Part shown: piece by piece, positions 885 to 56,601 of the stretch
Numbering within the stretch: position 1 is the first letter of the stretch
How the letters are laid out: every line of letters starts with the position of its first letter
DNA from: an uncultured Dialister sp.
GTDB lineage: Bacteria; Bacillota; Negativicutes; Veillonellales; Dialisteraceae
Assembly (NCBI GenBank): GCA_900543165.1
Contig: UQQQ01000003.1
Coordinates: 283-64,282 of the forward strand
Length of the DNA: 64,000 nucleotides
Direction of reading: 5' to 3'
Notes under the pieces: model-generated
The model's database searches: none
Told to the model about the DNA's origin: nothing
What the model saw: the letters and a program-made list of their open reading frames with translations, nothing else
Translations under genes and position numbers: made by a program

Positions 885-1392
885 TGGGTCCTTTCTTTGG
901 AAAATGGAAGCACCAAGGGTGCGGTGAGAAGATTTACATCATATTATAGCATGAGGGGCAAGGCGAGGGGCGTGCCGCCCTTTGATTGCGTGCGAAAACT
1001 TCGCTTGAATGAGAAATTAGAAATGAGAAATGCGAAATGGTAGTGCTTCGCGCCGTCGTCATCTCGAGCGTAGCCGAGAGATCTTCCTTGCAGAACGGTT
1101 AGTGTACCAATTGCGCTATTTCAATCACCGCTTGCTCCTAATCCCTAATCCCTAGCCACTTATCCCTGCTTTCAAACTTGTGGTGGCGGCTTCGCTGCAA
1201 TATATATGGGGCGATGCCCGAAGGTCTGCCAAAAAGCAGGTTTCCCGTTTTGAATTTTCCAAACATTACCCGCTTGACCGCGAATGACAAAGATCGAGGG
1301 CTGCGCTCGGAATGACGATATGAGAAGGCGGCAGTCTGACGTCTCCTAGTCTCCAGTCTCCAGTCACTAGTCACTAGTCACCAGTCACTCAC
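885..1392. repeat. Mosaic intergenic repeat: GAAATTAGAAATGAGAAATGCGAAATGGT module, a partial TCGTCATCTCGAGCG module, and a heptamer array (CTAGTCT/CACTAGT)n at 1343-1392.
   Basis: The same modules recur more than 30 times in this window in both orientations. Confidence 0.8.
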
Positions 1393-1395
1393 CCC

Positions 1396-1460
1396 GAAAA
1401 AAACTTTCCTCTCCCCCCCTGACCCTGTCACTTGTGACAGGGTCAGGGGGAAAAATTTTT
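1396..1460. terminator. Bidirectional intrinsic terminator: perfect 36-nt palindrome CCCCCTGACCCTGTCACTTGTGACAGGGTCAGGGGG flanked by an A-run and a T-run.
   Basis: A GC-rich hairpin with GAAAAAAA upstream and AAAAATTTTT downstream. Confidence 0.7.
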
Positions 1461-1555
1461 GATACAATGTGTACAAGATAGGGGTAGTGTACCCTTTTTT
1501 AGAAAAAGCAGACGGTATTCTGCGTACTGCCTTTTTTCCGATGGAGGATCTTGCC

Positions 1556-3219
1556 ATGAAACGTACCATACAATCGCTATCTCTTAGTCTTTTGACAGCC
1601 CTTCTTTTTTCAGGCAGTGTGAGTGCTGCGCCGGCGCTGCCGCAGCTCGATCCGAAGGGTCCGGCGGTGCAGAAGGTGACAGATCAGGCGTCGCGCATGA
1701 GTGAGACGAACCAGCAGGTGGCATCGTACTATCAGAAGAGCCGCTACCGCACGCTGGATGCGGTGCATTCCTCAGAGGCGGAAGCTGAAAAGGGCGGGCT
1801 TGTCTTTGAAGTGAAGGAAATCCGTGTGACGCCGTCGAAATTTCTTTCCGCAGAGGAGATCCGGAAGGCCATCCATTTCAAAGGCGCAGGGCCTGCCACT
1901 GTGAAAGAGCTGACGGACATGGTGGCCCGCCTGAATGCGCTGTATCAGGAGAAGCATATCGTGACGGCGCAGGCCGTGCTGCCGCCACAGAAGGTACAGG
2001 ACGGCGTGGTCTACATCCGTCTCATTGAAGGGAAATTCGGCAAGACGGTCATCACGGGAAATCAGCGGATTTCCGAGAAGACGCTCCTCTCGCGCATCCA
2101 TGGAAGGATGGGCGAACTGGTGGACGTGGACCGGCTCGAGGATGAGCTCCGCGTGTATAATTCGACGAATACCTATCAGGTGCGGGCAGAGCTGGTGCCG
2201 GGAGAAGAGGAAGGGACCTCCGACCTCCATCTGGTGCTCGAGGAGAAGGAGAATCCGCTGACATCCTTCATTTTCACGGACAATGCGGGGCAGAAAGAGA
2301 GCGGCCGCTACCGCATCGGCGCGTATACGGAGTACCGCGGGATCGGCGGGCATGATGCGAGCCTCGCAGTGAGCCCGGTGTGGACGGAAGGCATCTGGGG
2401 CGGCTCGGTGATGTACGATACGCCATGGGGGCATCACGGGACGCGGGCGCAGATTTCCTATAGCAGAAATCTGGTGGATATCATCGACGGCACCTTCAAG
2501 GACTATGACATGAAGGCAAATTCGAATGACGCGGCGATTTCCATCACGCATCCTGTGAATATCACGCCGCTTTCCCGTGTGGACGTCTTCCTGGAAGGCC
2601 ATCGGAAATGGTCGGATACCACATACTCCGGGATGGAGCTTTCGAATAGCGCGACGCGCACGGTGAAGGCCGGACTGTCAGCGCGGAGCTTCGATGAGAA
2701 CGGGCTGTGGTTCTTCATGACCAGCGTCACCGGCTACGAAAGCGATGACCGCGTGAATGATAAGGATAACAACGGCTCATATATAGCGCCTACCTCATGC
2801 GCCGGCAGAATCTCAAAAATGACCAGTACATGCTCTACCGCCTCTACGGCCAATACACCGCCTTCGAGTCGCTGCCCTCGACGGAGCAGTTCACGCTGGG
2901 CGGCATGGGGAGTGTCCGCGGATACCAGGAAAGTATCCTTTCGGGCGATAAAGGCTGGTTCACCGGTATGGAGTACGGCTTCCCCATCAGCAGTGACCAT
3001 CAGACATGGCGAGGCTTCGTCTTCCTCGACCACGGTGTCGCATATAACAATTTCACCATCAAAACAACGAAGGACTATCTCACGAGCGCGGGCCTCGGTC
3101 TGGAGTGCAGCAAGGGCGGCTGGTATGGTAAGGCCGTCCTCGGCATCCCGCTCAAGGATTCCGGAAATATCGGAGATGCATCGCCGAGAGTGCATTTCTA
3201 TCTGCAGAGGAATGTGTAA
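1556..3219 (+). CDS. TpsB-type two-partner-secretion transporter (ShlB/FhaC/HecB family), frameshifted near 2779-2785.
   Basis: Signal peptide MKRTIQSLSLSLLTALLFSGSVSA, RBS GGAGG, POTRA-like N-terminus and a beta-barrel C-terminus (...GMEYGFPISSDHQTWRGFVFLDHGVAYNNF...VHFYLQRNV). The ORF track splits it into 1469..3247 (frame 2, Ser/Arg junk after ~2790) and 2797..3219 (frame 1). The shift sits at an ATATATA tract. Removing one TA gives a continuous ...NNGSYSAYLMRRQNLKNDQYMLYRLYGQ... Confidence 0.75.
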
Positions 3220-3566
3220 TTTTGAGGGACTGGTGACTGGTGGCTAGTAGCTAGGGATTAGTGGCTAGGGATTAGGTTTGCGATACGAGAAAACCGCTAG
3301 TTTCAAAACTCCGCGGCGCTTCATTATTTTGCGTCGCACCAACCCCTTTGAACCTCTTAAACCTATAGCGATGAGTAGCTAGGGATTAGGGATTGGGGAT
3401 TAAGAGTGACTAGTGACTGGTGACTTGAATACTGCTTTCGGGCATCGCCCCATACATATTCGCGGCGAAGCCGCCACCACAACCCTGAACCCTGAACCCT
3501 GAACCCTGAACCCTTAAACCCTTCAACCGATCTTCATGATCTTTCGACACAAAGGAGGACCATCTT

Positions 3567-5294
3567 ATGAATAAAATCTACAAAGTCGTCTGGAATGCCA
3601 CGCGTGGCTGCTATGTGGTCGCTTCGGAGCTGGTGAAGACGCACCGGGGGAAGAAGAGCGTGCGCCGCGGCGGGAGCATCCTCTCCCGCGCAGGGACGGC
3701 ACTGCTCCTTGCTATCGCAGGCTGGGGCGCGGCTTGCAATTTCATTTACGCAGATGTCAACGTGGCGGATCCGGCTCACACTGGCAAGGTGGATAAGACC
3801 CCGCTCGCAGGCGGCGGCACGCAGTATGACATCTACAACCAGCAGGTCAACAATGGCAGTGCCCTGAACAAGTTCACGGATTTCGGTATCGGACAGAAGG
3901 ACGTGGCGAATCTTCAGCTCGGCTCCTCGGTCGATCGCCAGATCAACCTAGTCAAGAACCGCATCAACATTGATGGCGTGGTGAATGCGATCAAGGATAA
4001 TAAGATCGGCGGGGACGTGTATTTCTTCTCGAATGCAGGCATTATGGTCGGCAAGACTGGCGTATTCAATGTGGGGCGTCTGACGCTGGGGACGAATGCG
4101 GCGTATGGCGAAGCGCTGTACAATGGCGGGATGGAGAAGCATTTGGCGCAGTCCGCTACGGCGCAGGCGAAGGCTGTCGCTGGCGGCAGTGACATCACGC
4201 TTCAGGGGAAGGTCTATGCCCAAGGCGATGTGATCGTGGGCGCAGGCGATGTATCTCTGAACGGTGCGGCTGTACGCACGCATGTGGATAATGCAGGCAC
4301 TTACGCAGCGCAGAAAACCGCCGATGAATATAGAAATCAGCTGGTGAATATCAATACCCCGTCGGCTACGGTCGCCACTGCTCTCGGCAAGGGCGATGTC
4401 GCACTGGCGGCTGTCGGTGTACCGTCGGAAGCGAAATCCTTCGAGACCAAGGGTGCGATCGTCATTGACAAGGCATACATTGACGCGTCAGGCGGTGACA
4501 CGTCGGTCATCGCCAGCGCGGAACGGAATGGCGGGAATCTCATGGGCAGCCAGGCTTCGGCGTCGGTCGATATTTCGAATGCCACCATCAAAGGGCAGCA
4601 TGTAGGCATTGCGGCGAAGACGGAAGTCAGCGGCAAGGTCGGCTCGGCGGATGCGTATAAAACAGCTGCGGAAGAGGATGGTATCCTCGGACTGCTCCAT
4701 GCGACCTTTGATGAACAGGTGGGAAATCTGGCGTCTGTCGTGAAGACGGGCGCAGACTCTCTCGTGACGGTCAAGGATTCGCAGCTCACCGCGGCGGAAG
4801 ACCTTACGATTTCCTCGAAGGTAAAGTCGGAAATTGGCAGTGAGACGGGCGGCGCTCTCGGCGTCGGGATCAATGTCGGCATCGCGGACGTTTCCTCGAA
4901 AGTAGAGATCCAGGGGACAAGTGCGCTCACGGCAGGGAAGGATCTCGCGATTTCTGAGGAAGGCAGTAACGCTATCGATCTCCAGCGGCAGGGCAGCGCG
5001 GAAGATCTTCCCATCGCGATCGATCTTGGCTGGGCGGAAGCGAAGACAGATGCATCCGTCAATGTAGACAAAGAGGCGACGCTGAAGGCGAAAGAAAATG
5101 TAGACGTATCGGCGAAGGCAGAGAGAAATCTCTCCGTCGAGGTCGAGAACAGCAGCGGCGACGGCACGCTGGGCCTCGCGGTCGGCGTCATCCAGTCCGA
5201 GACGAAGGCAACGGCCGATGTGCAGGGCAAAGTCTATGCAAATGGCAAGGTCAGTGTCAGAGAATACGGTATCGGACGAAGATGGGAAGTATGA
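3567..5294 (+). CDS. TpsA adhesin fragment 1/7 (ESPR signal peptide + TPS domain).
   Basis: See the parent feature. RBS AAAGGAGG. Frame 0. Confidence 0.7.
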   Translation: MNKIYKVVWNATRGCYVVASELVKTHRGKKSVRRGGSILSRAGTALLLAIAGWGAACNFIYADVNVADPAHTGKVDKTPLAGGGTQYDIYNQQVNNGSALNKFTDFGIGQKDVANLQLGSSVDRQINLVKNRINIDGVVNAIKDNKIGGDVYFFSNAGIMVGKTGVFNVGRLTLGTNAAYGEALYNGGMEKHLAQSATAQAKAVAGGSDITLQGKVYAQGDVIVGAGDVSLNGAAVRTHVDNAGTYAAQKTADEYRNQLVNINTPSATVATALGKGDVALAAVGVPSEAKSFETKGAIVIDKAYIDASGGDTSVIASAERNGGNLMGSQASASVDISNATIKGQHVGIAAKTEVSGKVGSADAYKTAAEEDGILGLLHATFDEQVGNLASVVKTGADSLVTVKDSQLTAAEDLTISSKVKSEIGSETGGALGVGINVGIADVSSKVEIQGTSALTAGKDLAISEEGSNAIDLQRQGSAEDLPIAIDLGWAEAKTDASVNVDKEATLKAKENVDVSAKAERNLSVEVENSSGDGTLGLAVGVIQSETKATADVQGKVYANGKVSVREYGIGRRWEV

Positions 5295-6243
5295 TCCCGA
5301 TACGCTCCACATCACGAGCGAGAGCGAAAGCGATGATGGCACCAGCTCGGATCCCATTCACGACATCGTGGACGTAGCGATGACCAAGGGCAAGGGCAAC
5401 CAGCTCATGGCGGGCATCAAGAAGCTTTGGGGTGATAAGTCGACGGAGAAGAAGGCGGCAGACGCCGGGACGACCGCGGCTGACCAGATCGCGGCGACGA
5501 GCGCGGGCGGCGGCCTCGGGCTCAATGCTGCGACGGCTTTCCTCTTCAGTGACAACAGCGCGAAGGCGTCCCTTTCGGGTGAAGTGCGCGGCTATGATGG
5601 AGCAAGCGGTGCGGGCGCAGTCGATGTACACGCGGAGACCTTGTCGCGGACGAAGGTGAAGGCAGGTGTCAGCCAGGGTGCGGACAAGAGCGCCGGCATC
5701 GCGGCGGCGGTGAACTACGTCGACCAGAATGACAAGGCCGAAGCCGAACTCGCGGGTGACATCAAGTCCAAGGGCGATGTGAAGGTCAGCGCGGAAACGA
5801 AGCGCCCCTGGCAGTCGAACCTTGAAGGCTTCGGTGAAAATCTTGCGGATGACTTGGCAACCATTTTCGATCCGAATAATGGTTTTGAACTGTCGTGCCT
5901 GACCGACTCTTGGACGCAGACGGTCGGCGCGGGCGAGAAAGTCTCCGGCGCAGCGGCGCTGAACATCATGGAATACAACCACACCGCGAAAGCAACGGTG
6001 AAGAAGGATACGAAGGTAGACATCGATAATGGCAATCTCGATGTCAGCGCGAAGAATGATATCCACACTGTGAATTTCAGCGGCGACATCAAAGCGCCGA
6101 TCGGCGACCAGCCGGGGAGCCTCGATTTTGGGAAGACATTGGAGGAAGTCCTTTCTCCGGCAGCGGGAAAGCCGCATTGGGCGGCGCGGCGCTTACCGTG
6201 CATCAGAAGAATACCGCCGAAGCCACCGTGGAAGATGGCGTGA
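5218..6243 (+). CDS. TpsA adhesin fragment 2/7.
   Basis: Frame 1 continuation (…SDEDGKYDPDTLHITSESESDDGTSSDP…). The shift lies between ~5250 and 5290. Confidence 0.55.
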   Translation: MCRAKSMQMARSVSENTVSDEDGKYDPDTLHITSESESDDGTSSDPIHDIVDVAMTKGKGNQLMAGIKKLWGDKSTEKKAADAGTTAADQIAATSAGGGLGLNAATAFLFSDNSAKASLSGEVRGYDGASGAGAVDVHAETLSRTKVKAGVSQGADKSAGIAAAVNYVDQNDKAEAELAGDIKSKGDVKVSAETKRPWQSNLEGFGENLADDLATIFDPNNGFELSCLTDSWTQTVGAGEKVSGAAALNIMEYNHTAKATVKKDTKVDIDNGNLDVSAKNDIHTVNFSGDIKAPIGDQPGSLDFGKTLEEVLSPAAGKPHWAARRLPCIRRIPPKPPWKMA

Positions 6244-8905
6244 CTGTGACGAAGGCGAAGGATGTCAGCGTCACGGCGGAGAACAAAGGCTCGAATCTTT
6301 CCATGGCGGCTGCGGGCGGCAAGGGGCAGACCGTTGCCATCGACGGGACAGTCAATGTCAACCGTTTCGAAAACACCACCAAAGCCACGGTCGGCAAAGC
6401 GACCATCAACGCAGACGGTGACGTCAGCGTCAGTGCTGAGGACAATAGCAAGACCATCAACATCGGCGGTGCGATCGCTGTCTCCGAACAGGCAGGCATC
6501 GGCGCCACCGTCGCATACAACCACATCGACCGCCAGACAGAAGCATCGCTCCAGGGGAAGGTCACTTCTACGAAAGACGTCTCCGTCACCGCCAAGAACA
6601 CCGGCGCGATCTACGCCATGTCCGCAGCCGGCGGTGTCACCATGGATAGCACCGAGGCGAACGGCGCAGGCAGTACCGGTCTGAAAGCACAGGAAGGTGA
6701 GGACAGCCAGAGCACCTCTTCGATCGGCGAACTGGCAGAAAAACTGCTGAACGCAGGCAAGTCGGACAAAGATAAGAAAGAGATCCAGAAAAGCGACTCC
6801 GCACTGGACACCATCGCAGGAAAAGATGCGTCCATGGGTGAGAACGTCGGCACCGCAAAGGGCGGCTTTGCCACGGCGGCGAATGTCTCCGTGAATCGTA
6901 TCACCGATACGGCGAAGGCGTATACGAAAGGAAATATGGTCACTGCCGATGCGCTCGCCATCCGTTCCGGCAATGACAGTAAGATCACGACAGGCGCGGG
7001 TGCGATCGCCCTCGGCCTCTCGCAGAACAGCAGTGCCATCGCAGGGAGCTTCATGTACAACGCCATCACGGACAAGAATGAAGCCTATGCCGAAGATGCA
7101 GTGCTGACGCTCCAAGGCAGCGAGAAGGAAGACGCTTCCCTCACTGTCGAAGCGGACAACGCGGCGAAGATCACAAATATCGCAGCGAGCGGCAGTGGTG
7201 CGGCAAAGGGCAGCGCCATCGCGGGCCAGATCAGTCTGAACTGGGTGGATAATGAAACCGACGCCCATGTGAAGGGCGGCCGTCTCACTGCGGATGAAGC
7301 GGCGACCATCGCGGCCAAAGACCGCGGCACCATCGACTCCTACACGGGCGCGGTGGCGATTTCCGCTGGCAATAATGGAGCGGCGGTGGGGGCGTCCATC
7401 GCAGCAAACCTCATCGAAGGGGAAACCACCTCTTCGCTCGAAGATACCACAGTGAACAGCGGCGGCGCCCTCTCCGTCACCGCGGATGAGACCAGCCAGA
7501 TCCAGTCCATCGTGGCGGCCTTCTCGGCGAGCGGGAACTGGATCCACACGAAGACGGATGCCCATATTTCCAATGACAATACCATGAAGACAGGGGCGCT
7601 CTCCGTCCTGGCGAAGAATGGAAGCAATGCGACACTCGGCGTCGGCAGTGCGGCTGTCGGAGGAAACTCCGCCGGCGCATCCATCGGCGTTATGGTGAAC
7701 CAGTCGGAAGTCGCAGCTACGCTTACCGGCGATAAAGATAAGAATCATACCATCACCGCGGACGGCATCACTGTACAGGCGGATAATGCGTACAATGGCG
7801 CGGCTTCGGATACAGATGATAAGACTGCTAGGACCGTCGCTGTCGGCTTCGCTGGCGGCACCTCGCAGTTCGCGGGCTCCGGCTCTGTCACGGTGAATGT
7901 CATCGACCAGAAGACCGATGCGACTATCGGCAAGGGCAAGTACGATGCAGGGCGAAAGGCGGCTCAGGTAGGTGCGACAAGCACCGCGAAGCTCTTCGGC
8001 CTCGCGGGCGGCGCGTCCCTCTCCGCGGGAAGCGGTATTGGCGCAGCTGTCGACGTCCAGACCTACAACGGTCACACCTATGCAGGCATCGCCGACGGTG
8101 CGTCCCTGAAAAATGCGTCCTCCGTCACCGTGAATGCGGACTCGAAAGAACACCTGACCTCTGTCGCAGCGCCCCTCGCCGGCGGAGCCGGTACTTTCGC
8201 AGGGGCAGGGGCAGCTGGCGCACACTCCGTCTCGACCGATACGAAAGCGTATTTGGGCCAGAGTGAAGTGACGGAGGCCGGTGATGTCTCTGCCACCGCC
8301 AAGGATGAAACGGAACTGAAAACCGTCGCAGGCAGTGGTGCTGCCAGCGGAAATACCGGTGTCGGTCTCACCGCAGCGGTCGAAGTGGTGAACAAAAAAG
8401 CTAGTGCGATCGTGGGTGACGATGTGAAAGTGACAGGCAGCAGCCTCACCGTGAAAGCAGAAAACACCAGCAGCAGCGTGACCAGTGCTGCCGGTCTCGG
8501 TGCCGGCGGTACGGCAGGTCTTGCCGGAGCGGCATCGGAAACCTTCATGAAGCAGGAAACCGATGCACATGTCGGCAAGAATGCGAAAGTTACCGTCAAG
8601 AAGGGCGCGGAGATTCTTGCCGATTCGAAGTTTACGCAGGGCGCGGCGGCGGGCAGCGTCGGTGCGGCGGGAACGGTCGGCATGGGGCTCACGAATTCCA
8701 CGGTTTCCTTCACGGGAGACACCGCCGCTTATGCGGATGAGAACGCGGTTATCGATGGCGGGGAAAAAGTCAATATTTCCGCAACCCAGCTGACGAAGGT
8801 AGACTATGGCACGGTCGCGGGCGCGGTGGGCGGCACGGCGTCTCTCTCCGGCACCGTGGGTGTCAATGCGCTGAAGACGACCACGAAAGCCTATGCAGCA
8901 GCCAG
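6177..8905 (+). CDS. TpsA adhesin fragment 3/7.
   Basis: Frame 0 (…AALGGAALTVHQKNTAEATVEDGVTV…). Protein-like text ends near 8905, and the track ORF runs on into junk until 9035. Confidence 0.55.
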
Positions 8906-32745: not shown

Positions 32746-33297
32746 TCTGTGGTTCTCCTCTATCTCTGATAAAACAACATAGAATTTATTATATGTAATT
32801 CGCTGGAAGAAATCAAGAAGGAAATAGACTGGAAGTCGAGAAAGTGGTTGTCAGGTTGAGCGGGGAAAGGTGGCGGCTTCGCCGCATGTTAGAGGATGGT
32901 ATGCCCGTATCGTCAGCCTTCCCCTCGAGGGGAAGGTGCCCCGAAGGGGCGGATAGGGCACAGGCGGCATGAAAGGCGGGTGATGCAGATGGAAAAACGT
33001 TTTTGCACAAATCACTGCTAACGAAAGCACCCTATCCACCGCTGACGCGGTTCCCCTTCCCCGATGGGGAAGGCTAAGCAGAGCGGCGCTTCGCACCGAG
33101 TATAAAAAGGGCGATGCCCGAAGCGTTCTTGGGGAGCGGGTTTCCCGTTTGTGTTTCCTGTCATCGACCGCCTGACCGCGAATAAAAAAGATTTCTCGCT
33201 GGCGCTCGAAATGACGATACAAGAGAGTCCCTAATCCCTAATCCCTAGCCACTAGCTACCAGTCACCAGTCACAAGTCACTCATCCCCAGTCCCCAG

Positions 33298-33768
33298 TCA
33301 CTGATACTGCCCGATCGCCTGCTGCATTTTTTCGGCGCTGTCCATGAGGTGATTGGCTTTCTCCATGAGCGCATCCATGCGGGGGTCTTTGTCTTCGGTG
33401 ACCGTTGCGCCGCTTGCAAGGATACCGGCAGACAAATTTCCGCCCGAGATTTTGACATAGGTGTCGCCGATGAGGCCGGAAGTGGTGATGGAGAATGCCG
33501 CATCCTTGGGGATCATGGCTTTCTGATTGATTTCCAGATGAAGGACGGCCTTGCCTTTTTCGATGGTGATGGCTTTCAGCCGCCCGACCTTGACGCCGGC
33601 GTGGAGCACGGAAGCCCCCGGCGTGATGCCCTGCGCATCATCGAAGACAGCATAGACGGGAAAGGTGGTAGGGAAGAGCCGTTCCATCGGATGCAGAAGG
33701 AGCGCAGCGATGTCGATGGCAAGAAAGAGGAGAAGGGCAGTCATGCCGATTTTGGTTTCTTTGGTCAT
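33298..33768 (-). CDS. MlaD/MCE-domain protein.
   Basis: N-terminal TM helix plus MCE domain (…VGRLKAITIEKGKAVLHLEINQKAMIPKDAAFSITTSGLIGDTYVKISGG…). Confidence 0.6.
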   Translation of the reverse strand: MTKETKIGMTALLLFLAIDIAALLLHPMERLFPTTFPVYAVFDDAQGITPGASVLHAGVKVGRLKAITIEKGKAVLHLEINQKAMIPKDAAFSITTSGLIGDTYVKISGGNLSAGILASGATVTEDKDPRMDALMEKANHLMDSAEKMQQAIGQYQ

Positions 33769-33799: not shown

Positions 33800-34490
33800 T
33801 GGCGGGGGTTAGCCCTTGGGGCGTGCCGTTCCTTGATTACGTTTGAAAGCCTCGATTGAATGAGAAATTAGAAATGAGAAATACGAAATGGTGGTGCGGC
33901 GCATAAAAACAGGGAAGCGCCGCAGAGTATAGATAATGGCGATGCCCGAAGGTGGTATTTAGTCACCAGTCACTAGTCACTCCTAATCCCTAGTCACTAG
34001 CTACCAGTCCCCAGTCACCAGTCACTTCTCCTCATTATACCCTCTTTTCCCTTCTTGTGCTAAAATAGGATGGAATGGCAAAAGAGCTTTTGCCATTCGG
34101 TATAATCGTTTCGGCCCGGGACAGTGTCTGTTCACGGGTCAGGTGAATTCTATATCGCCAGAGATATAGAAAGCGCAGCATAGAGATGGAGTTAGAAGTT
34201 AGAAGTGGTGGTGGTGGCGGCTTCGCCGCAATTATATATAGGGTGATGCCCGCTTGTGTCTTTCAAGCCTTAAAAACAAGGTTTGAAAGCAGGGATGAGT
34301 GGCTAGGGATTAGGGATGAGAAGCAAGCGGTGATTGAAGTAGCGCAGTTAGCGCGCTGACCGTTCTGCAAGGAGGATCTCTCGGCTACGCTCGAGATGAC
34401 GATGCGCGTGAAGCGCTATTAAAACTCCGCGGTGCTCTATTATTTTTTTGCGCCGCTCCTGCATTTCTCATTTCTAATTAGCTCTCTATG
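33800..34490. repeat. Composite repeat block upstream of the McrBC-like module.
   Basis: Module A, heptamers, GGTGGCGGCTTCGCCGC hairpins and a partial TCTCGGCTACGCTCGAGATGACG module. Confidence 0.75.
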
Positions 34491-42272: not shown

Positions 42273-42306
42273 AAAAAACCTCGCCATATGGCGAGGCCTT
42301 TTTTAT
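42273..42306. terminator. Bidirectional terminator (CCTCGCCATATGGCGAGG + T-run) overlapping the Fe-ADH stop.
   Basis: Palindromic hairpin flanked by AAAAAA and TTTTTTATTTTTT. Confidence 0.7.
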
Positions 42307-43358
42307 TTTTTCAGTGCTTCGACATCCGCGATGGCTTTTCTCAAAAGCTCTGCGGTGACAGGATAGGGGACCTTGTTGAGGTCCGGCTTTGTGAGTGCAT
42401 TGGCGATGAGTTCTTCCGGATCGGTGAGGCCGATGTCAGAAAGAGAGTGCGGGAGATGCGTGCGTTCGCAGAAGGCGTAGAGCTTGTTTCTTTCTTCCCG
42501 CTGTCCGTCCAAGGTGAGGAGGACGAGGGTGCCATAGCAGACGACCGCGCCGTGGAGGTGCGCTCCTTCATGGGCTACGCCGGTGTGAGAATTGTAGAGG
42601 GCATGTGCGACGCTGGAGTTGTAGTCTTCCGGTTCCAGATTCGAAATGATGCCGGTGGAGCAGACGATATTCTGGGCTACATACTCGAGGGCTTCGCCGG
42701 CTGTCTTTTCATCAGCAGATTTCAGCGCGGCTTCGCCGTATTCGAGAAGGCCCTGCGAGCAGGTGCCGGCCAGCGTGACGCCGAGATTTCTGCCGTAGGG
42801 GAGGACATCGCCTCTGGCAGAGAATTCGACTTCGTACTGTTTGGAGAGCGCGTCGCCGATGCCGGCCCAGAGGTATTCTCTTGGCGCATTTGCGATGACG
42901 CCGGTATGGATGAAGGTGTGGTAGGACGGACGATCAACGTAGTAGACCTGGCGGAAGGTGTGGTCTTCGTAGTAGTATGCGCCGACAGCGGTGACGGGAG
43001 CGCAGTTCGAGGCGAGGGTCGGGAAGGTGAAGTAGGGCTTGCCTGCTTCAGCAGCTGCTTTCTTCGCCGTGTCGATGGCGCGGCCGCCGCCCATGGCAAA
43101 GACCATGTCCGCTTTCTGGAAGGCTTCGTTTTCTTTCAGCGCTTCGGCGTTTTCAAATGTCGCATCGCCGCCGTAGTAGAGGGAGTCGAGGATCTCCATC
43201 TTGCCTTCCAGCGCTTTCCGAAGGAGCGGCTCGGCAGCGGCTCTGGACTTGTGCCCGCCGATGAGGACGGCGGTCTTTCCGAAGTGATGGCAGACATCGT
43301 AGACGCTGTCATATGCGTCAGTACCGATGGTATAGCTGGGGAGGAACTGGTTTGTCAT
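42303..43358 (-). CDS. Iron-containing alcohol dehydrogenase family (glycerol-dehydrogenase-like).
   Basis: MTNQFLPSYTIGTDAYDSV…LIGGHKS…GGGRAIDTAK… ATG at 43356-43358 with GAAGG. The upstream track extension has no RBS. Confidence 0.65.
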   Translation of the reverse strand: MTNQFLPSYTIGTDAYDSVYDVCHHFGKTAVLIGGHKSRAAAEPLLRKALEGKMEILDSLYYGGDATFENAEALKENEAFQKADMVFAMGGGRAIDTAKKAAAEAGKPYFTFPTLASNCAPVTAVGAYYYEDHTFRQVYYVDRPSYHTFIHTGVIANAPREYLWAGIGDALSKQYEVEFSARGDVLPYGRNLGVTLAGTCSQGLLEYGEAALKSADEKTAGEALEYVAQNIVCSTGIISNLEPEDYNSSVAHALYNSHTGVAHEGAHLHGAVVCYGTLVLLTLDGQREERNKLYAFCERTHLPHSLSDIGLTDPEELIANALTKPDLNKVPYPVTAELLRKAIADVEALKK

Positions 43359-43505
43359 GGGATGGCCTTCTTTTGTAAATGATGTGTGGAAATGGATGAT
43401 TTCTATTGTAGTAGATTTTGGGGTATGGTTCAATGGGGTTCAGGGTTCAGGGTTCAGGGTTCAACGGGGACGGTGCCCCGTCTCCTAGTCACCAGTCACC
43501 AGGCA

Positions 43506-44507
43506 CTAGTCTGTCGCAAGCTCGCGGACGTTGACGGCTTCGGTTTCTTCTTCTTCGCTGAATCTCGGGTTTAGGTAGTTGACGCAGGCCCAGGCGAGGA
43601 CAGCACCGGAGATGGTGAACCAAGCGGAGAAGATCGCGCCCGGTACGACGGCTGCCGGCATGGAAGCGAAGTGGACTTTGGCAAGACCGGTGGCGAGGCC
43701 GGAATTCTGCATGCCGACTTCGACGGAGAGAGTGACGGCTTTCTTCCAAGAGAGGCCGCAGAGTTTGGCTACGGCAAGACCTAAGACATAGCCGAGCGTA
43801 TTGAAGAGGACGACGACTGCGAGGATGACGCCGAGGTTATCCATGATGGCTTTGTGGGAGGCACCGACGACGCCGGCGATGATGAGGCAGATGGTGACAG
43901 AGGAGACGGCGGGGGTGTAGTCTGTTGCGACAGCGGCTGCTTTCGGGAGGAAGTATTTCAGCGCAAGGCCGAGGCATACGGGGAGGATGACGATCTGCAG
44001 GATGGAGAGGAACATGCCGACCGGATCGAAGGCGATTTCCTTACCGATGAGGAAGAAGGTCAGCGCCGGGGTGAGGACCGGAGAAAGCAGGGTGGAGACG
44101 GAGGTCATGGTGACGGAGTACGCGAGGTCGCCTTTGCTCATATAAGTGATGACGTTGCTCGTCGTGCCGCCGGGGCAGGCGCCGAGGAGGCTGAGGCCGG
44201 CGGTGAGGCCAGGCTCGAGGGCAAAGAGTGTACCCAGTGCGAAGGCGAGGAATGGCATGATGGTGTACTGCGCGAGCGTACCGAGGAAGATGTCGCGCGG
44301 ACGGCGGAAGATGACGAGGAAGTCTTTGAGGTCAAGCGTGGTGCCCATGCCGAACATGATGACGCTGAGCAGTACGGAGAGGACGGAGACGCCCTGGACT
44401 TTGCCTAAGATCCAAAGCCAGCTAGTCGGGGTGACAAGACCGAGTACAAGAAAGACGACGGCCATGACGCCGAAATATTTCGCAAGCATTTGACAACATT
44501 TTTTCAT
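43506..44507 (-). CDS. Bile acid:sodium symporter (BASS) family transporter.
   Basis: 333 aa, ~9-10 TM. RBS AGGAG 8 nt upstream. Confidence 0.7.
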   Translation of the reverse strand: MKKCCQMLAKYFGVMAVVFLVLGLVTPTSWLWILGKVQGVSVLSVLLSVIMFGMGTTLDLKDFLVIFRRPRDIFLGTLAQYTIMPFLAFALGTLFALEPGLTAGLSLLGACPGGTTSNVITYMSKGDLAYSVTMTSVSTLLSPVLTPALTFFLIGKEIAFDPVGMFLSILQIVILPVCLGLALKYFLPKAAAVATDYTPAVSSVTICLIIAGVVGASHKAIMDNLGVILAVVVLFNTLGYVLGLAVAKLCGLSWKKAVTLSVEVGMQNSGLATGLAKVHFASMPAAVVPGAIFSAWFTISGAVLAWACVNYLNPRFSEEEETEAVNVRELATD

Positions 44508-44649
44508 GGTAGAGCTCCTTGGGGAAATGAATACAGGGTTCAGATCGAATGAGGATGGGGACTATGCCGCCGGTCTTTTGGGGCATAGCCTTTCAGGCAG
44601 AATGTTCAATATCACTTTCCATAAGGATCCCTTCTTTCTGCAAAACTCG

Positions 44650-44945
44650 CGGTAGAGCAGGGATTGGAAATAAAAAAATCCGTCCCTCGACTGAGGGACG
44701 GATACTGGTTCCGCGTTACCACCCTGATTCCTGAAGGATATGACTATCCCAGGCGCTCTACAACGTACAAACATACGCGTTTCCTGTAACGTGGAAATGA
44801 CGTCGGCGCTTAATAGGTTTCAGCACCGCACCTCAGGGATGATTTTCATATGTCCTGTCCTGCCGGATTGCACCAGACTCCGGCTCTCTGAGAAGATCTC
44901 GGAAATACTACTCTTTCCCTTCAAAGGGTTTTCTTCGTGTGAAGA
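44650..44945 (-). promoter_or_regulatory. T-box riboswitch leader with sigma70-like promoter (TTGACA 44977-44982, TATAAT 44953-44958) and terminator (44672-44704).
   Basis: On the minus strand: the T-box sequence AATCAGGGTGGTAACGCGG (plus 44711-44729); an AGAGA/GUA stem I; a candidate specifier loop ...GAAAAUCAUCCC (AUC = Ile, tentative); and a terminator hairpin ATCCGTCCCTCAGTCGAGGGACGGAT followed by a U-run. Confidence 0.75.
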
Positions 44946-45147
44946 TGAGCTGATTATACAGGACGGGATATGCATCTGTCAAGCGTTTGCAAAATATGGA
45001 AAATGGGACGTTCTCATGGGCAAGGATGAGAAATTTAGATAATTAGTGGCTAGTCACCAGTCACTCATCCCAAGCTACTCATCCCTGCTTTCAAACTGTT
45101 TCTCTTGTAGTATAATAGAAAAAACTTTTTTCGAAGGAGATACATGT

Positions 45148-46049
45148 ATGGATGCCATATTGCAAGGTCTTTCCGGCATTTTTGAAGTGGTTCTCATGGC
45201 GGGGCTGGGCTTTTTCTTAGCGAAGAAGGGCTGGTTCTGGGAGAATGCGGCGAAGAATCTGACATAGCTCACGATGACTGTCGCGCTGCCGCCGCTCATG
45301 ATTCATTCGCTGTATGCGAATTTCACGCATGATGCACTGATCGCGGCGGCGCCGGATCTGGTGCTGCCCTTTGTTTCTATCTTCGCCAGTTACCTCGCTG
45401 GGCATGTGCTCGCATCCGTGCTTCATATCTCCAAGGGACGCCGCGGCATTTTTATCTGTACCTGCTGCATTGCGAATGCCATCTTCATCGGCGTGCCGTC
45501 GTGCATGCTGTACTATCTGGCGAATACGACGATGTTCTGGGCGCTGGGGCGTACCTCATCATACGGGATGCCGGCGGGGATCACCATTTCACGCCGCGGG
45601 AGATGCTCTTGAAGCTCCGCACTCCGCCGCTCATGGGATTCGCAGCGGGCGTCATCCTGCTCCTTGTGAATGTCCCCATCCCGCACTTTGCGATGGCAGC
45701 GATGAAGTATGTGGGCGGTATGGCGACGCCGATGGCGCTCATGGTCATCGGTATCCAGATGAGCCAGATCCCTCTTTCCTCCATCCATTTCGATAAGGAC
45801 TTGGTGGGGGCGATGGCGGGCCGTTTCCTTCTGGCACCGCTCTGCCTCTTCCTGCTTCTTCCCGTCATTCCGGTTTCCGAGATGTCTTCCAAGGTCTTTC
45901 TCATGCAGGCGGGGATGCCGGCGATGACGAATATGACGATCCTCGCGACTGCGGTCGGAGCGGATGCGGAGTACTCGACGACGGTGAACTGCGTCTCGCT
46001 CGCTTTGGGCGTATTCTTCGTGCCGTTTTACATGTATATGCTGGCGTGA
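45148..46049 (+). pseudogene. AEC (auxin efflux carrier/malate permease) family transporter, disrupted by an in-frame TAG (45265-45267) and a G-tract frameshift (~45545).
   Basis: The three track ORFs 45046..45267, 45274..45612 and 45501..46049 are contiguous AEC sequence. Adding one G at GCTGGGGCG restores ...MFWALGAYLII... Confidence 0.65.
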
Positions 46050-55624: not shown

Positions 55625-55668
55625 GATGGAGGCCTTTCTGACGATGACTGGTGGCTGGTGACTGGTGA

Positions 55669-56601
55669 CTAGTGACTGGGGATTAGGAAATGAGAAGTCA
55701 GCTCCTCGATCTGATTTCTCCAATTATCCGTATCGTACTCGATCTGCTCCGACCAGCGGGAGACGGCGCGGAAGGGATCTTTTGTGTGCACGGCCTCAAG
55801 GTAGATGAAGAGCGTACTCTCCTCGGCAAACCGGGCGAGTACGGAGACGGGAACGGCGGGCTGATCCCAGTCTTCGGGGCTGGCAAGGTCCAGCTGGCGA
55901 TAGAGGATGTATTGGTAGATGGCATCCCAGAATCCCGCAGGGACTTTGGGCGGGTGCGCCTTGGCCTCGTTCACCAGCTCTTCGGCGTGCGCCTGCATCC
56001 ATGCGAGGTCCCTTGTCCACGCGGCATCGATGGGCTCCGTGCCTTCCATCGCGCGCAGCATGGCGGATACGGATTTCATGGAAAGGTCGAGGGTGAAATG
56101 GCATTCTTTGTCGGAAAGGGACAGAAGCAGTTCATCCATGAGCTGGGAAAATGTCACGGTCATGCCGTCATACCCGGCTGCTTCCGGATCCTGAAGATCG
56201 AATGTGAGGGGCAGGTGCTCGGCGATCTGTTCTACCGTGCGCTCACAGCAGAGCCCCGTACCCGAGAGCTCGGCGCCGCATGGATATTTGTAGAAACGCG
56301 GGTGCTCCCGGCAGATGTCGCAGAGCGCATCCTCGCCGAGCTCCAGTACCAGACGGCAGAGGCCGGCTTTGTTCAGGAAATGGCAGTAGCCTTTCTCGTT
56401 CAGCGTAAAACAGGTGGAACCATCCTCCGACGTTCCCATCCATTGCCGGATCTCCTGACACAGCGGGCTCTTGAGCGTTTGGTAATAGTCCTTCGTGTCT
56501 TCGTCGATGTCGATCTCCCATGTCTGGCAGCAGGTGTGCCGGCAAGCGCCTGCCTTGCAGCGGAAGTCAGGGAAGAATGTGGGGAAAATGGTCAGGGACA
56601 T
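55669..56601 (-). CDS. YkgJ/FliB-like cysteine-cluster protein (CxxxC…CC).
   Basis: …FRCKAGACRHTCCQTWEID… The C-terminal FLIPSH* is encoded by a CCTAATCCCCAGTCACTAG repeat. Confidence 0.45.
   Translation of the reverse strand: MSLTIFPTFFPDFRCKAGACRHTCCQTWEIDIDEDTKDYYQTLKSPLCQEIRQWMGTSEDGSTCFTLNEKGYCHFLNKAGLCRLVLELGEDALCDICREHPRFYKYPCGAELSGTGLCCERTVEQIAEHLPLTFDLQDPEAAGYDGMTVTFSQLMDELLLSLSDKECHFTLDLSMKSVSAMLRAMEGTEPIDAAWTRDLAWMQAHAEELVNEAKAHPPKVPAGFWDAIYQYILYRQLDLASPEDWDQPAVPVSVLARFAEESTLFIYLEAVHTKDPFRAVSRWSEQIEYDTDNWRNQIEELTSHFLIPSH

Follow-up and report, generated by a model that had tools for sequence, protein, structure and literature searches.

A 64,000 nt stretch of DNA from an uncultured Dialister sp. 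(contig UQQQ01000003.1 of assembly GCA_900543165.1, positions 283 to 64,282; the whole of this stretch is referred to here as the window) carries on its minus strand a T-box leader RNA, a gene for a BASS-family (bile acid:sodium symporter) protein and a gene for a glycerol dehydrogenase-like oxidoreductase of the Fe-ADH family. The leader is almost certainly a canonical class I transcriptional T-box, an ordinary member of Rfam family RF00230, and its specificity is very probably for isoleucine (Ile), through an AUC specifier codon. It is somewhat more probable than not, in our judgment, that the operon serves the salvage of an Ile precursor in an Ile auxotroph rather than the uptake of Ile; that this precursor is specifically a 2-hydroxy acid is a far more tentative proposal. 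The transporter gene shares 95-98% identity with loci of Dialister metagenome-assembled genomes and of Dialister sp. i34-0019-2H8. Related loci are cited below by their L numbers.

The leader is preceded by a sigma-70-type promoter (TTGACA-18-TATAAT; 44953-44982, minus strand) that matches the consensus at 12 of 12 positions. Distant orthologous loci (L012 and L019) have perfect TTGACA-17-TATAAT promoters in the equivalent position. Scanned with the RF00230 covariance model, the full-length leader (44691-44933, minus strand) scored 132.2 bits (gathering score 93, E-value: 3.8e-29) over model positions 1-219 of 219, and this was the sole Rfam match across the 64-kb window. Its architecture comprises Stem I (with K-turn, specifier loop, AG bulge and distal loop), Stem II, the IIA/B region, Stem III and an antiterminator, and the T-box sequence AAUCAGGGUGGUAACGCGG can be read directly at 44711-44729 (minus strand). 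The leader was aligned with 18 homologous leaders from related loci (n = 19). RNAalifold analysis of these 19 leaders found compensatory changes at 19 of 59 consensus pairs, spread across Stem I, Stem II and Stem III. Both the near-consensus promoter and the T-box riboswitch proposed in a first-pass annotation of this DNA are thus borne out.

The specifier codon AUC lies in the Stem I specifier loop at 44841-44843 (minus strand). The 3' side of this loop reads GAA-A-AUC-A and is followed by UCCC; the covariance-model alignment places AUC at the codon, with the conserved purine immediately 3' of it and the closing helix (GGGA/UCCC) next to that purine. AUC does not vary among the 19 leaders. 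The base 5' of it is A, or G in L015, and the base 3' of it is A, or C in L011 and L012. Because the flanking bases vary and AUC is constant, only the AUC frame survives. The codon frames AAU (Asn) and UCA (Ser) were ruled out, as they are broken by L015 (GAAGAUCA) and by L011 and L012 (AAUCCU) with AUC left intact. AUC is the usual Ile specifier in T-box leaders, and the Ile assignment, which the first-pass annotation had made provisionally, stands on the covariance-model position and on the conservation of the codon. The antiterminator bulge contains UGGU (44718-44721, minus strand; read directly in GGGUGGUAACGCGG), the predicted partner of the tRNA 3' end ACCA (discriminator A73), and this motif is likewise constant in 19 of 19 leaders. 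The last U of UGGU would match the A73 discriminator of bacterial tRNA-Ile but not the G73 of tRNA-Asn. A search for tRNA genes, tRNA-Ile among them, found none in the window and none in 35 related loci.

Two competing structures lie at the 3' end of the leader, both on the minus strand. The antiterminator helix AGGG-UGGUAAC-GCGGA...UCCGU-CCCU was taken from the covariance-model structure line (44694-44725), and the intrinsic terminator, AUCCGUCCCUC-AGUC-GAGGGACGGAU followed by U7, has an 11-bp stem and a 4-nt loop (44671-44703). The strand common to both is UCCGUCCCU (44702-44694), which forms the 3' strand of the antiterminator and the 5' arm of the terminator. It had been suggested in the first-pass annotation that the T-box sequence itself overlaps the terminator 5' arm; the overlap exists, but it belongs to the antiterminator 3' strand, the T-box sequence ending at 44711. 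Folding gave -24.8 kcal/mol for the terminator region (z = -4.2) and -8.7 kcal/mol for the antiterminator by itself. The terminator is therefore stronger than the antiterminator, an asymmetry that is expected where a tRNA must hold the antiterminator in place, and the alternative between the two structures that a T-box of this kind calls for is present.

The BASS gene (43506-44507, minus strand) encodes a 333 aa PanS/ASBT_NM-like transporter that scores 148.1 bits against Pfam SBF (PF01758, gathering score 24.3), in agreement with the family originally assigned to it. A gap of 163 nt, or roughly 170 nt if counted from the stem, separates its start codon from the U-tract, so that the gene is not immediately adjacent to the terminator. 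The second gene of the operon (42303-43358, minus strand) encodes a 351 aa Fe-ADH/glycerol dehydrogenase-like oxidoreductase (PF00465, PF13685). An operon terminator, CCUCGCC-AUAU-GGCGAGG followed by U6 (42273-42296, minus strand; read directly), begins 6 nt after the Fe-ADH stop codon, and equivalent strong hairpins are found 3' of the Fe-ADH gene in L012 and L019. The spacer between the two genes (43359-43505, minus strand) contains period-7 repeats and the ribosome-binding site AAAGAAGG, with no canonical terminator. This gap is 147 nt long in the window and 39-58 nt long in L008, L012 and L019, where it likewise holds a ribosome-binding site and no terminator; the window gap is longer because period-7 repeats have been inserted. 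The order BASS then Fe-ADH is observed in every sufficiently long Dialister locus of the window's clade, down to 65% identity for Fe-ADH and 69% for BASS. The conserved gene order, the short terminator-free gaps and the terminator after Fe-ADH indicate a unit consisting of promoter, T-box, BASS, Fe-ADH and terminator, and we predict that the two genes are co-transcribed from the T-box promoter.

The Fe-ADH protein is closest to glycerol dehydrogenases. It scores 179.6 bits against the GldA model PRK09423, which is below the cutoff of 336, and is 24% identical to E. coli GldA. Its Zn ligands (Asp169, His252 and His269) and NAD-binding motif (GGGR..DT.K) are constant in 13 aligned sequences. A metagenome scan with this protein returned matches from the same species only and no new context. 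In L011 (Dialister micraerophilus DSM 19965, 4001-6112), the T-box is intact (137.5 bits), but codon 151 of the BASS gene is followed by an in-frame stop, a frameshift divides the Fe-ADH gene and there is no copy of the mini-ORF described below; these defects are either pseudogenes in this species or draft-assembly errors.

A paralogous operon shows where the window's operon came from. Six Dialister loci (L013-L017 and L117; L118 is an identical copy of L117) carry the arrangement T-box(AUC)-ilvD-BASS. The IlvD proteins of L014 and L015 score 785.6 and 791.5 bits against TIGR00110 (cutoff 618), and in the complete genome CP181256.1 the distance from ilvD to BASS is 13 nt. The leader of this operon is homologous to that of the window and has the same AUC specifier, its transporter keeps the residues His294 and Asn295 (discussed below), and it is without Fe-ADH. 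Three assemblies carry both operons (L008 with L014, L009 with L017 and L004 with L013). For the four closest assemblies (L001, L002, L003 and L005), the ilvD-linked paralogue was not among the best 80 matches, although it would be expected to rank there. IlvD converts 2,3-dihydroxy-3-methylvalerate into 2-keto-3-methylvalerate, and the substrate of this reaction and pantoate, which the nearest solved BASS homologue binds, are constitutional isomers.

Between the terminator and the BASS gene of the window is a mini-ORF encoding MESDIEHSA (44593-44622, minus strand), preceded by the ribosome-binding site GAAAGAAGGGA at about 44628-44637, and this mini-ORF is what is left of the ilvD 5' end. When the window was compared with 11 other leaders of its clade (L001, L004-L012 and L019), the ribosome-binding site and the block ATG/TTG-GAA-AGT-GAT-ATT were found to be kept in the window and in 10 of the 11 (L001, L004-L010, L012 and L019), L011 being the exception. 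Two synonymous GAT-to-GAC changes occur in this block among the leaders, and the sequence around it is otherwise unalignable and rich in repeat insertions. The first codons of ilvD in the paralogue are ATG-AGA-AGT-GAC-ATT-GTT-AAA-AAG (MRSDIVKK). The L012 version of the mini-ORF encodes MESDIRKK and its stop codon overlaps the BASS start codon as TGATG, an arrangement in which it would be translationally coupled to BASS. The resemblance of MESDI to the ilvD start, taken together with the existence of the paralogous operon, argues that the window's operon arose from an ilvD operon by deletion of the dehydratase gene. The 163 nt that separate the U-tract from the BASS start are then the scar of this deletion. 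Possible reasons for the retention of the MESDI codons are translation as an upstream open reading frame, coupling to BASS, or mRNA protection.

Two further features of the L117 locus were recorded. First, an extra partial Stem I and the start of a Stem II lie upstream of its complete Ile T-box (7868-8005, Dialister genome CP181256.1; also present in L118). The specifier position of this extra Stem I reads GAA-GUC-G (GUC = Val), and it is without a T-box sequence or terminator of its own; it receives no Rfam score, and its minimum-free-energy fold is not Stem I-like. A degenerate duplication and a second domain for tRNA docking are both conceivable. Second, a stand-alone Fe-ADH homologue that is 54% identical to the window enzyme is found 6 kb upstream of the T-box-ilvD-BASS operon (1227-2291, plus strand).

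The chemistry of the transporter was examined by comparison with ASBT_NM (chain 3zuy_A), its nearest solved homologue (238.6 bits, about 45-50% identity), using a locus-table alignment numbered by ASBT_NM and a wider set of 134 database homologues. The sodium-site and crossover-helix residues Gln77, Ser114, Asn115, Glu260, Met263 and Gln264 are all identical to those of ASBT_NM (the sodium-site assignment being drawn in part from PMC10645422), and Thr112, Asn265 and Gly267 are conserved in all aligned homologues. In the ASBT_NM-pantoate complex, the carboxylate and 2-hydroxyl of pantoate are held by the backbone of Thr112, Ala113 and Gly267 and by Asn265, while the distal (C4) hydroxyl is contacted by His294 and Asn295 (PMC10645422). 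At position 113 the window protein has Thr. At positions 294/295 it has Phe/Thr, as do all full-length members of its clade with the exception of L019 and P0181, which have Phe/Asn. All other homologues in the locus table (among them the ilvD-linked paralogue and those of Phascolarctobacterium and Bacteroidales) have His/Asn, apart from the tandem paralogues L033b (His/Ser) and L050b (Gln/Asn). In the set of 134 homologues, Phe/Thr always occurs with Thr113 and His/Asn always with Ser113; Phe/Thr is confined to proteins at least 70% identical to the window protein, and the 294/295 signature varies in 4 of the 134. Of the two branches, that of the window evolves faster, with 63% identity to Phascolarctobacterium compared with 74% for the ilvD-linked paralogue. 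Taken together, the residue and gene-order data show a pairing: where the second-hydroxyl site is present the transporter accompanies a dehydratase, and where this site is lost it accompanies a dehydrogenase.

Orthologues of the transporter outside Dialister occur in other settings. No T-box was found upstream of the Phascolarctobacterium/Acidaminococcaceae BASS orthologues, either by regular expression or with Rfam. In the loci L020, L022, L046, L049, L050 and L051 of Phascolarctobacterium and other Acidaminococcaceae (about 3100-3870, minus strand), the BASS orthologue is always the divergent neighbour of a YigZ/IMPACT-family gene (TIGR00257, 181.8 bits).

These observations can be assembled into the following model. 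When Ile-tRNA charging is high, the 11-bp terminator would fold and transcription would stop at 44671. When uncharged tRNA-Ile accumulates, its anticodon would pair with AUC and its free ACCA end with UGGU, so that the weak antiterminator would be stabilised and polymerase would read through. The read-through transcript would encode the mini-ORF, a sodium-coupled BASS transporter and a Zn-dependent glycerol dehydrogenase-like oxidoreductase. The transporter would import a branched-chain 2-hydroxy-carboxylate, for which the best fit is 2-hydroxy-3-methylvalerate; the dehydrogenase would oxidise this compound to 2-keto-3-methylvalerate, and a transaminase would then yield Ile. With respect to supply, 2-hydroxy-3-methylvalerate, a known product of bacterial fermentation, and other branched-chain 2-hydroxy acids are documented bacterial products of branched-chain amino acid catabolism (PMC8924213), and with respect to demand, Dialister invisus and D. 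succinatiphilus are predicted auxotrophs in a genome-based reconstruction (Ile_Val = 0, Leu = 0; PMC9026213 Table S5). The ancestor would have been a T-box-ilvD-BASS operon engaged in salvage of a dihydroxy acid, from which the dehydratase was lost, the dehydrogenase recruited and the two second-hydroxyl residues replaced. In its fullest form, the model describes an Ile salvage route, as yet undescribed, in gut auxotrophs. It would comprise a T-box-induced BASS transporter specialised for branched 2-hydroxy acids and a 2-hydroxy-acid dehydrogenase of the glycerol dehydrogenase family, evolved from ilvD-BASS through exchange of the enzyme and two substitutions that retuned the pocket, with MESDI (Ile at codon 5) kept as a functional upstream open reading frame that affects transporter expression. 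We advance this complete version only as a possibility, and one that is more likely wrong than right in at least some of its parts.

Several points weigh against the hydroxy-acid salvage model. Activity on 2-hydroxy acids is not known to us for any enzyme of the glycerol dehydrogenase family. At 48-59% identity, the Fe-ADH homologues are stand-alone genes (P0046, P0036 and P0060 were examined), with no BASS gene, T-box or ilv genes near these three, so the enzyme family is not intrinsically tied to Ile. The spacer between BASS and Fe-ADH in the window holds a weak promoter-like site (9 of 12 matches). Acceptor and anticodon pairing with tRNA-Ile is a prediction from general knowledge of T-boxes. 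The auxotrophy prediction covers two named species other than the window strain. Lastly, Salmonella PanS reportedly transports both pantoate and ketopantoate (PMC10645422), and the Thr/Asn signature consequently does not exclude keto acids.

The last of these points bears on the strongest competitor, in which the T-box works as described above, the transporter imports the keto acid 2-keto-3-methylvalerate and the dehydrogenase is unrelated or otherwise employed. The first-pass annotation leaned in this direction, proposing that the transporter brings in Ile or a branched-chain precursor such as a keto acid. That the substrate is a precursor agrees with the paralogous ilvD operon, with the dehydrogenase predicted to be co-transcribed and with the predicted auxotrophy. 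The keto acid is harder to sustain, even though 2-keto-3-methylvalerate is a single transamination away from Ile, Fe-ADH homologues elsewhere are stand-alone genes, and there is precedent in plant BASS5, which carries 2-keto acids, in BASS2, which carries pyruvate, and in PanS, which is implicated in ketopantoate uptake (PMC10645422). Plant keto-acid BASS carriers have Gln/Ser in place of Thr112/Asn265, and ASBT_NM binds pantoate but not ketopantoate (PMC10645422), whereas the window protein keeps the Thr112/Asn265 of the pantoate binders. Moreover, each transporter paralogue is paired across species with either ilvD or the dehydrogenase, and an imported keto acid needs neither enzyme. We consider keto-acid import unlikely, though it deserves more weight than the readings that follow.

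If the transporter instead imported Ile itself, or branched-chain amino acids generally, it would resemble T-box-regulated brnQ, and the cognate amino acid is indeed the usual substrate of transporters under T-box control (PMC2494555). BASS proteins, however, are known to take organic anions (bile acids, pyruvate, glycolate, keto acids and pantoate; PMC10645422), the T-box survey does not list BASS in its table of transporter families, and the head-group site has the residues of a protein that binds 2-hydroxy-carboxylates. Amino-acid import would also leave the ilvD-BASS ancestry and the dehydrogenase without a role, and we regard it as improbable.

About equally improbable is the import of 2,3-dihydroxy-3-methylvalerate or of another precursor (e.g. 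2-hydroxybutyrate), with the dehydrogenase acting on it or on a vicinal diol. Glycerol dehydrogenase-family enzymes do act on vicinal diols, and BASS was paired with ilvD in the ancestral operon; but ilvD is deleted here, with the linked paralogue missing from the best 80 matches of the four closest genomes as noted above, oxidation of the dihydroxy acid at C2 does not yield Ile, and a substrate with fewer hydroxyls is suggested by the loss of His294/Asn295. Least probable of all, by a narrow measure, is that the transporter is still a PanS-like carrier of pantoate or ketopantoate (coenzyme A precursors) with an Ile T-box merely inherited from the ilvD operon and uninformative about substrate: the PanS model NF047939 is the second-best NCBIfam match (222.5 bits) and a pan motif RNA precedes a related gene in Succiniclasticum, but this score falls far under the equivalog cutoff of 400, both residues for the pantoate C4 hydroxyl are lost in the window's clade specifically, and the T-box, AUC and perfect promoter have been kept under selection across species at 69-75% transporter identity. 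The Succiniclasticum gene is a tandem BASS paralogue (Gln294/Asn295) in Succiniclasticum sp. UMGS663 (L050); the pan motif RNA lies directly upstream of it (RF01749, 5099-5196, plus strand; 46.5 bits, threshold 36.2), which links this paralogue to pantothenate-precursor metabolism.

Compared with known class I T-box leaders (for example, that of B. subtilis tyrS and the ileS leaders with an AUC specifier), the window leader has the same full architecture, UGGN bulge and competing terminator. It differs in its cargo, which is BASS plus a dehydrogenase instead of an aminoacyl-tRNA synthetase, an ilv/leu gene or an LIVCS/ABC transporter, and in the conserved mini-ORF between terminator and first gene. 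Comparable too are the T-box-regulated brnQ/LIVCS transporters (Wels et al. 2008; Sun et al. 2013), where an Ile T-box also drives uptake when Ile-tRNA charging falls; the transporter family of the window is different, and its probable substrate is a precursor and not an amino acid. The families tabulated by Wels et al. 2008 (ABC/APC/DAACS/LIVCS/MFS/NHAC/NSS; PMC2494555) do not include BASS, nor was BASS found in the available supplementary material of that survey or of Sun et al. 2013. Full-text searching that combined T-box with bile acid symporter and isoleucine yielded unrelated papers only. These results are suggestive of novelty in the regulated cargo, the T-box itself being ordinary.

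With PanS of Salmonella, ASBT_NM of N. meningitidis (3zuy_A, 8oyf_A) and plant BASS1, the window transporter shares the sodium site and the Thr112/Asn265/Gly267 head-group site. It is set apart from PanS and ASBT_NM by Phe/Thr for His294/Asn295 and Thr for Ala113, and by Ile T-box control with no link to pan genes. The paralogous Dialister operon, its evolutionary parent, has a homologous leader, the same specifier and a transporter of the same family; relative to it, the window's operon retains only a 5-codon relic of ilvD, has Phe/Thr and has gained Fe-ADH. A functional parallel is provided by the riboswitch-controlled transporters of thiamin precursors, in which a thiamin pyrophosphate (TPP) riboswitch acts as an end-product sensor that induces uptake of an intermediate where pathways are incomplete (PMC3766115). 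In the window, the sensor is a tRNA-binding T-box and the pathway is one of amino acid, not cofactor, synthesis.

Two other features of the window surround the T-box unit. Tandem arrays with a 7-nt period (AGTGACT/GGTGACT, GGGTTCA, AATGAGA and CCTAATC) are found in many intergenic gaps throughout the window, for example at 1341-1389, 3225-3528, 21187-21284, 21870-21961, 29324-29370, 33226-33299, 33960-34026, 43436-43511, 45050-45065 and 55645-55679. The sequence GGTGACTGGTGACTAG has 84 matches in the window at up to 3 mismatches, compared with 0.24 expected. These arrays flank the T-box unit, yet they are not specific to it, and a mobile cassette bounded by GTGACTGGTGACTAG repeats on either side of the unit was rejected, since the motif occurs 84 times in the window and the arrays fill many intergenic gaps. 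The divergent neighbouring gene (45154-46049, plus strand), of the auxin efflux carrier family (PF03547), is a pseudogene in the window strain. Relative to the intact 312 aa orthologues of L002, L003 and L005, it has a nonsense TAG codon, a 12-aa deletion and a frameshift.

The present analysis adds to the first-pass annotation a second operon gene, the ilvD relic in the leader and the paralogous operon. The T-box serves here as a functional label, linking a BASS subfamily and an uncharacterised glycerol dehydrogenase-like enzyme to Ile supply in Dialister, an abundant gut genus that is predicted to be auxotrophic for branched-chain amino acids. The ilvD relic is a clear example of a T-box module re-used with new cargo. 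If the proposed function is correct, the substrate range of bacterial BASS transporters would be extended, and the paralogue pair (His/Asn with a dehydratase, Phe/Thr with a dehydrogenase) would offer a natural system for dissecting substrate recognition in this family. Hydroxy- and dihydroxy-acid intermediates would then join the currencies of amino acid cross-feeding in the gut.

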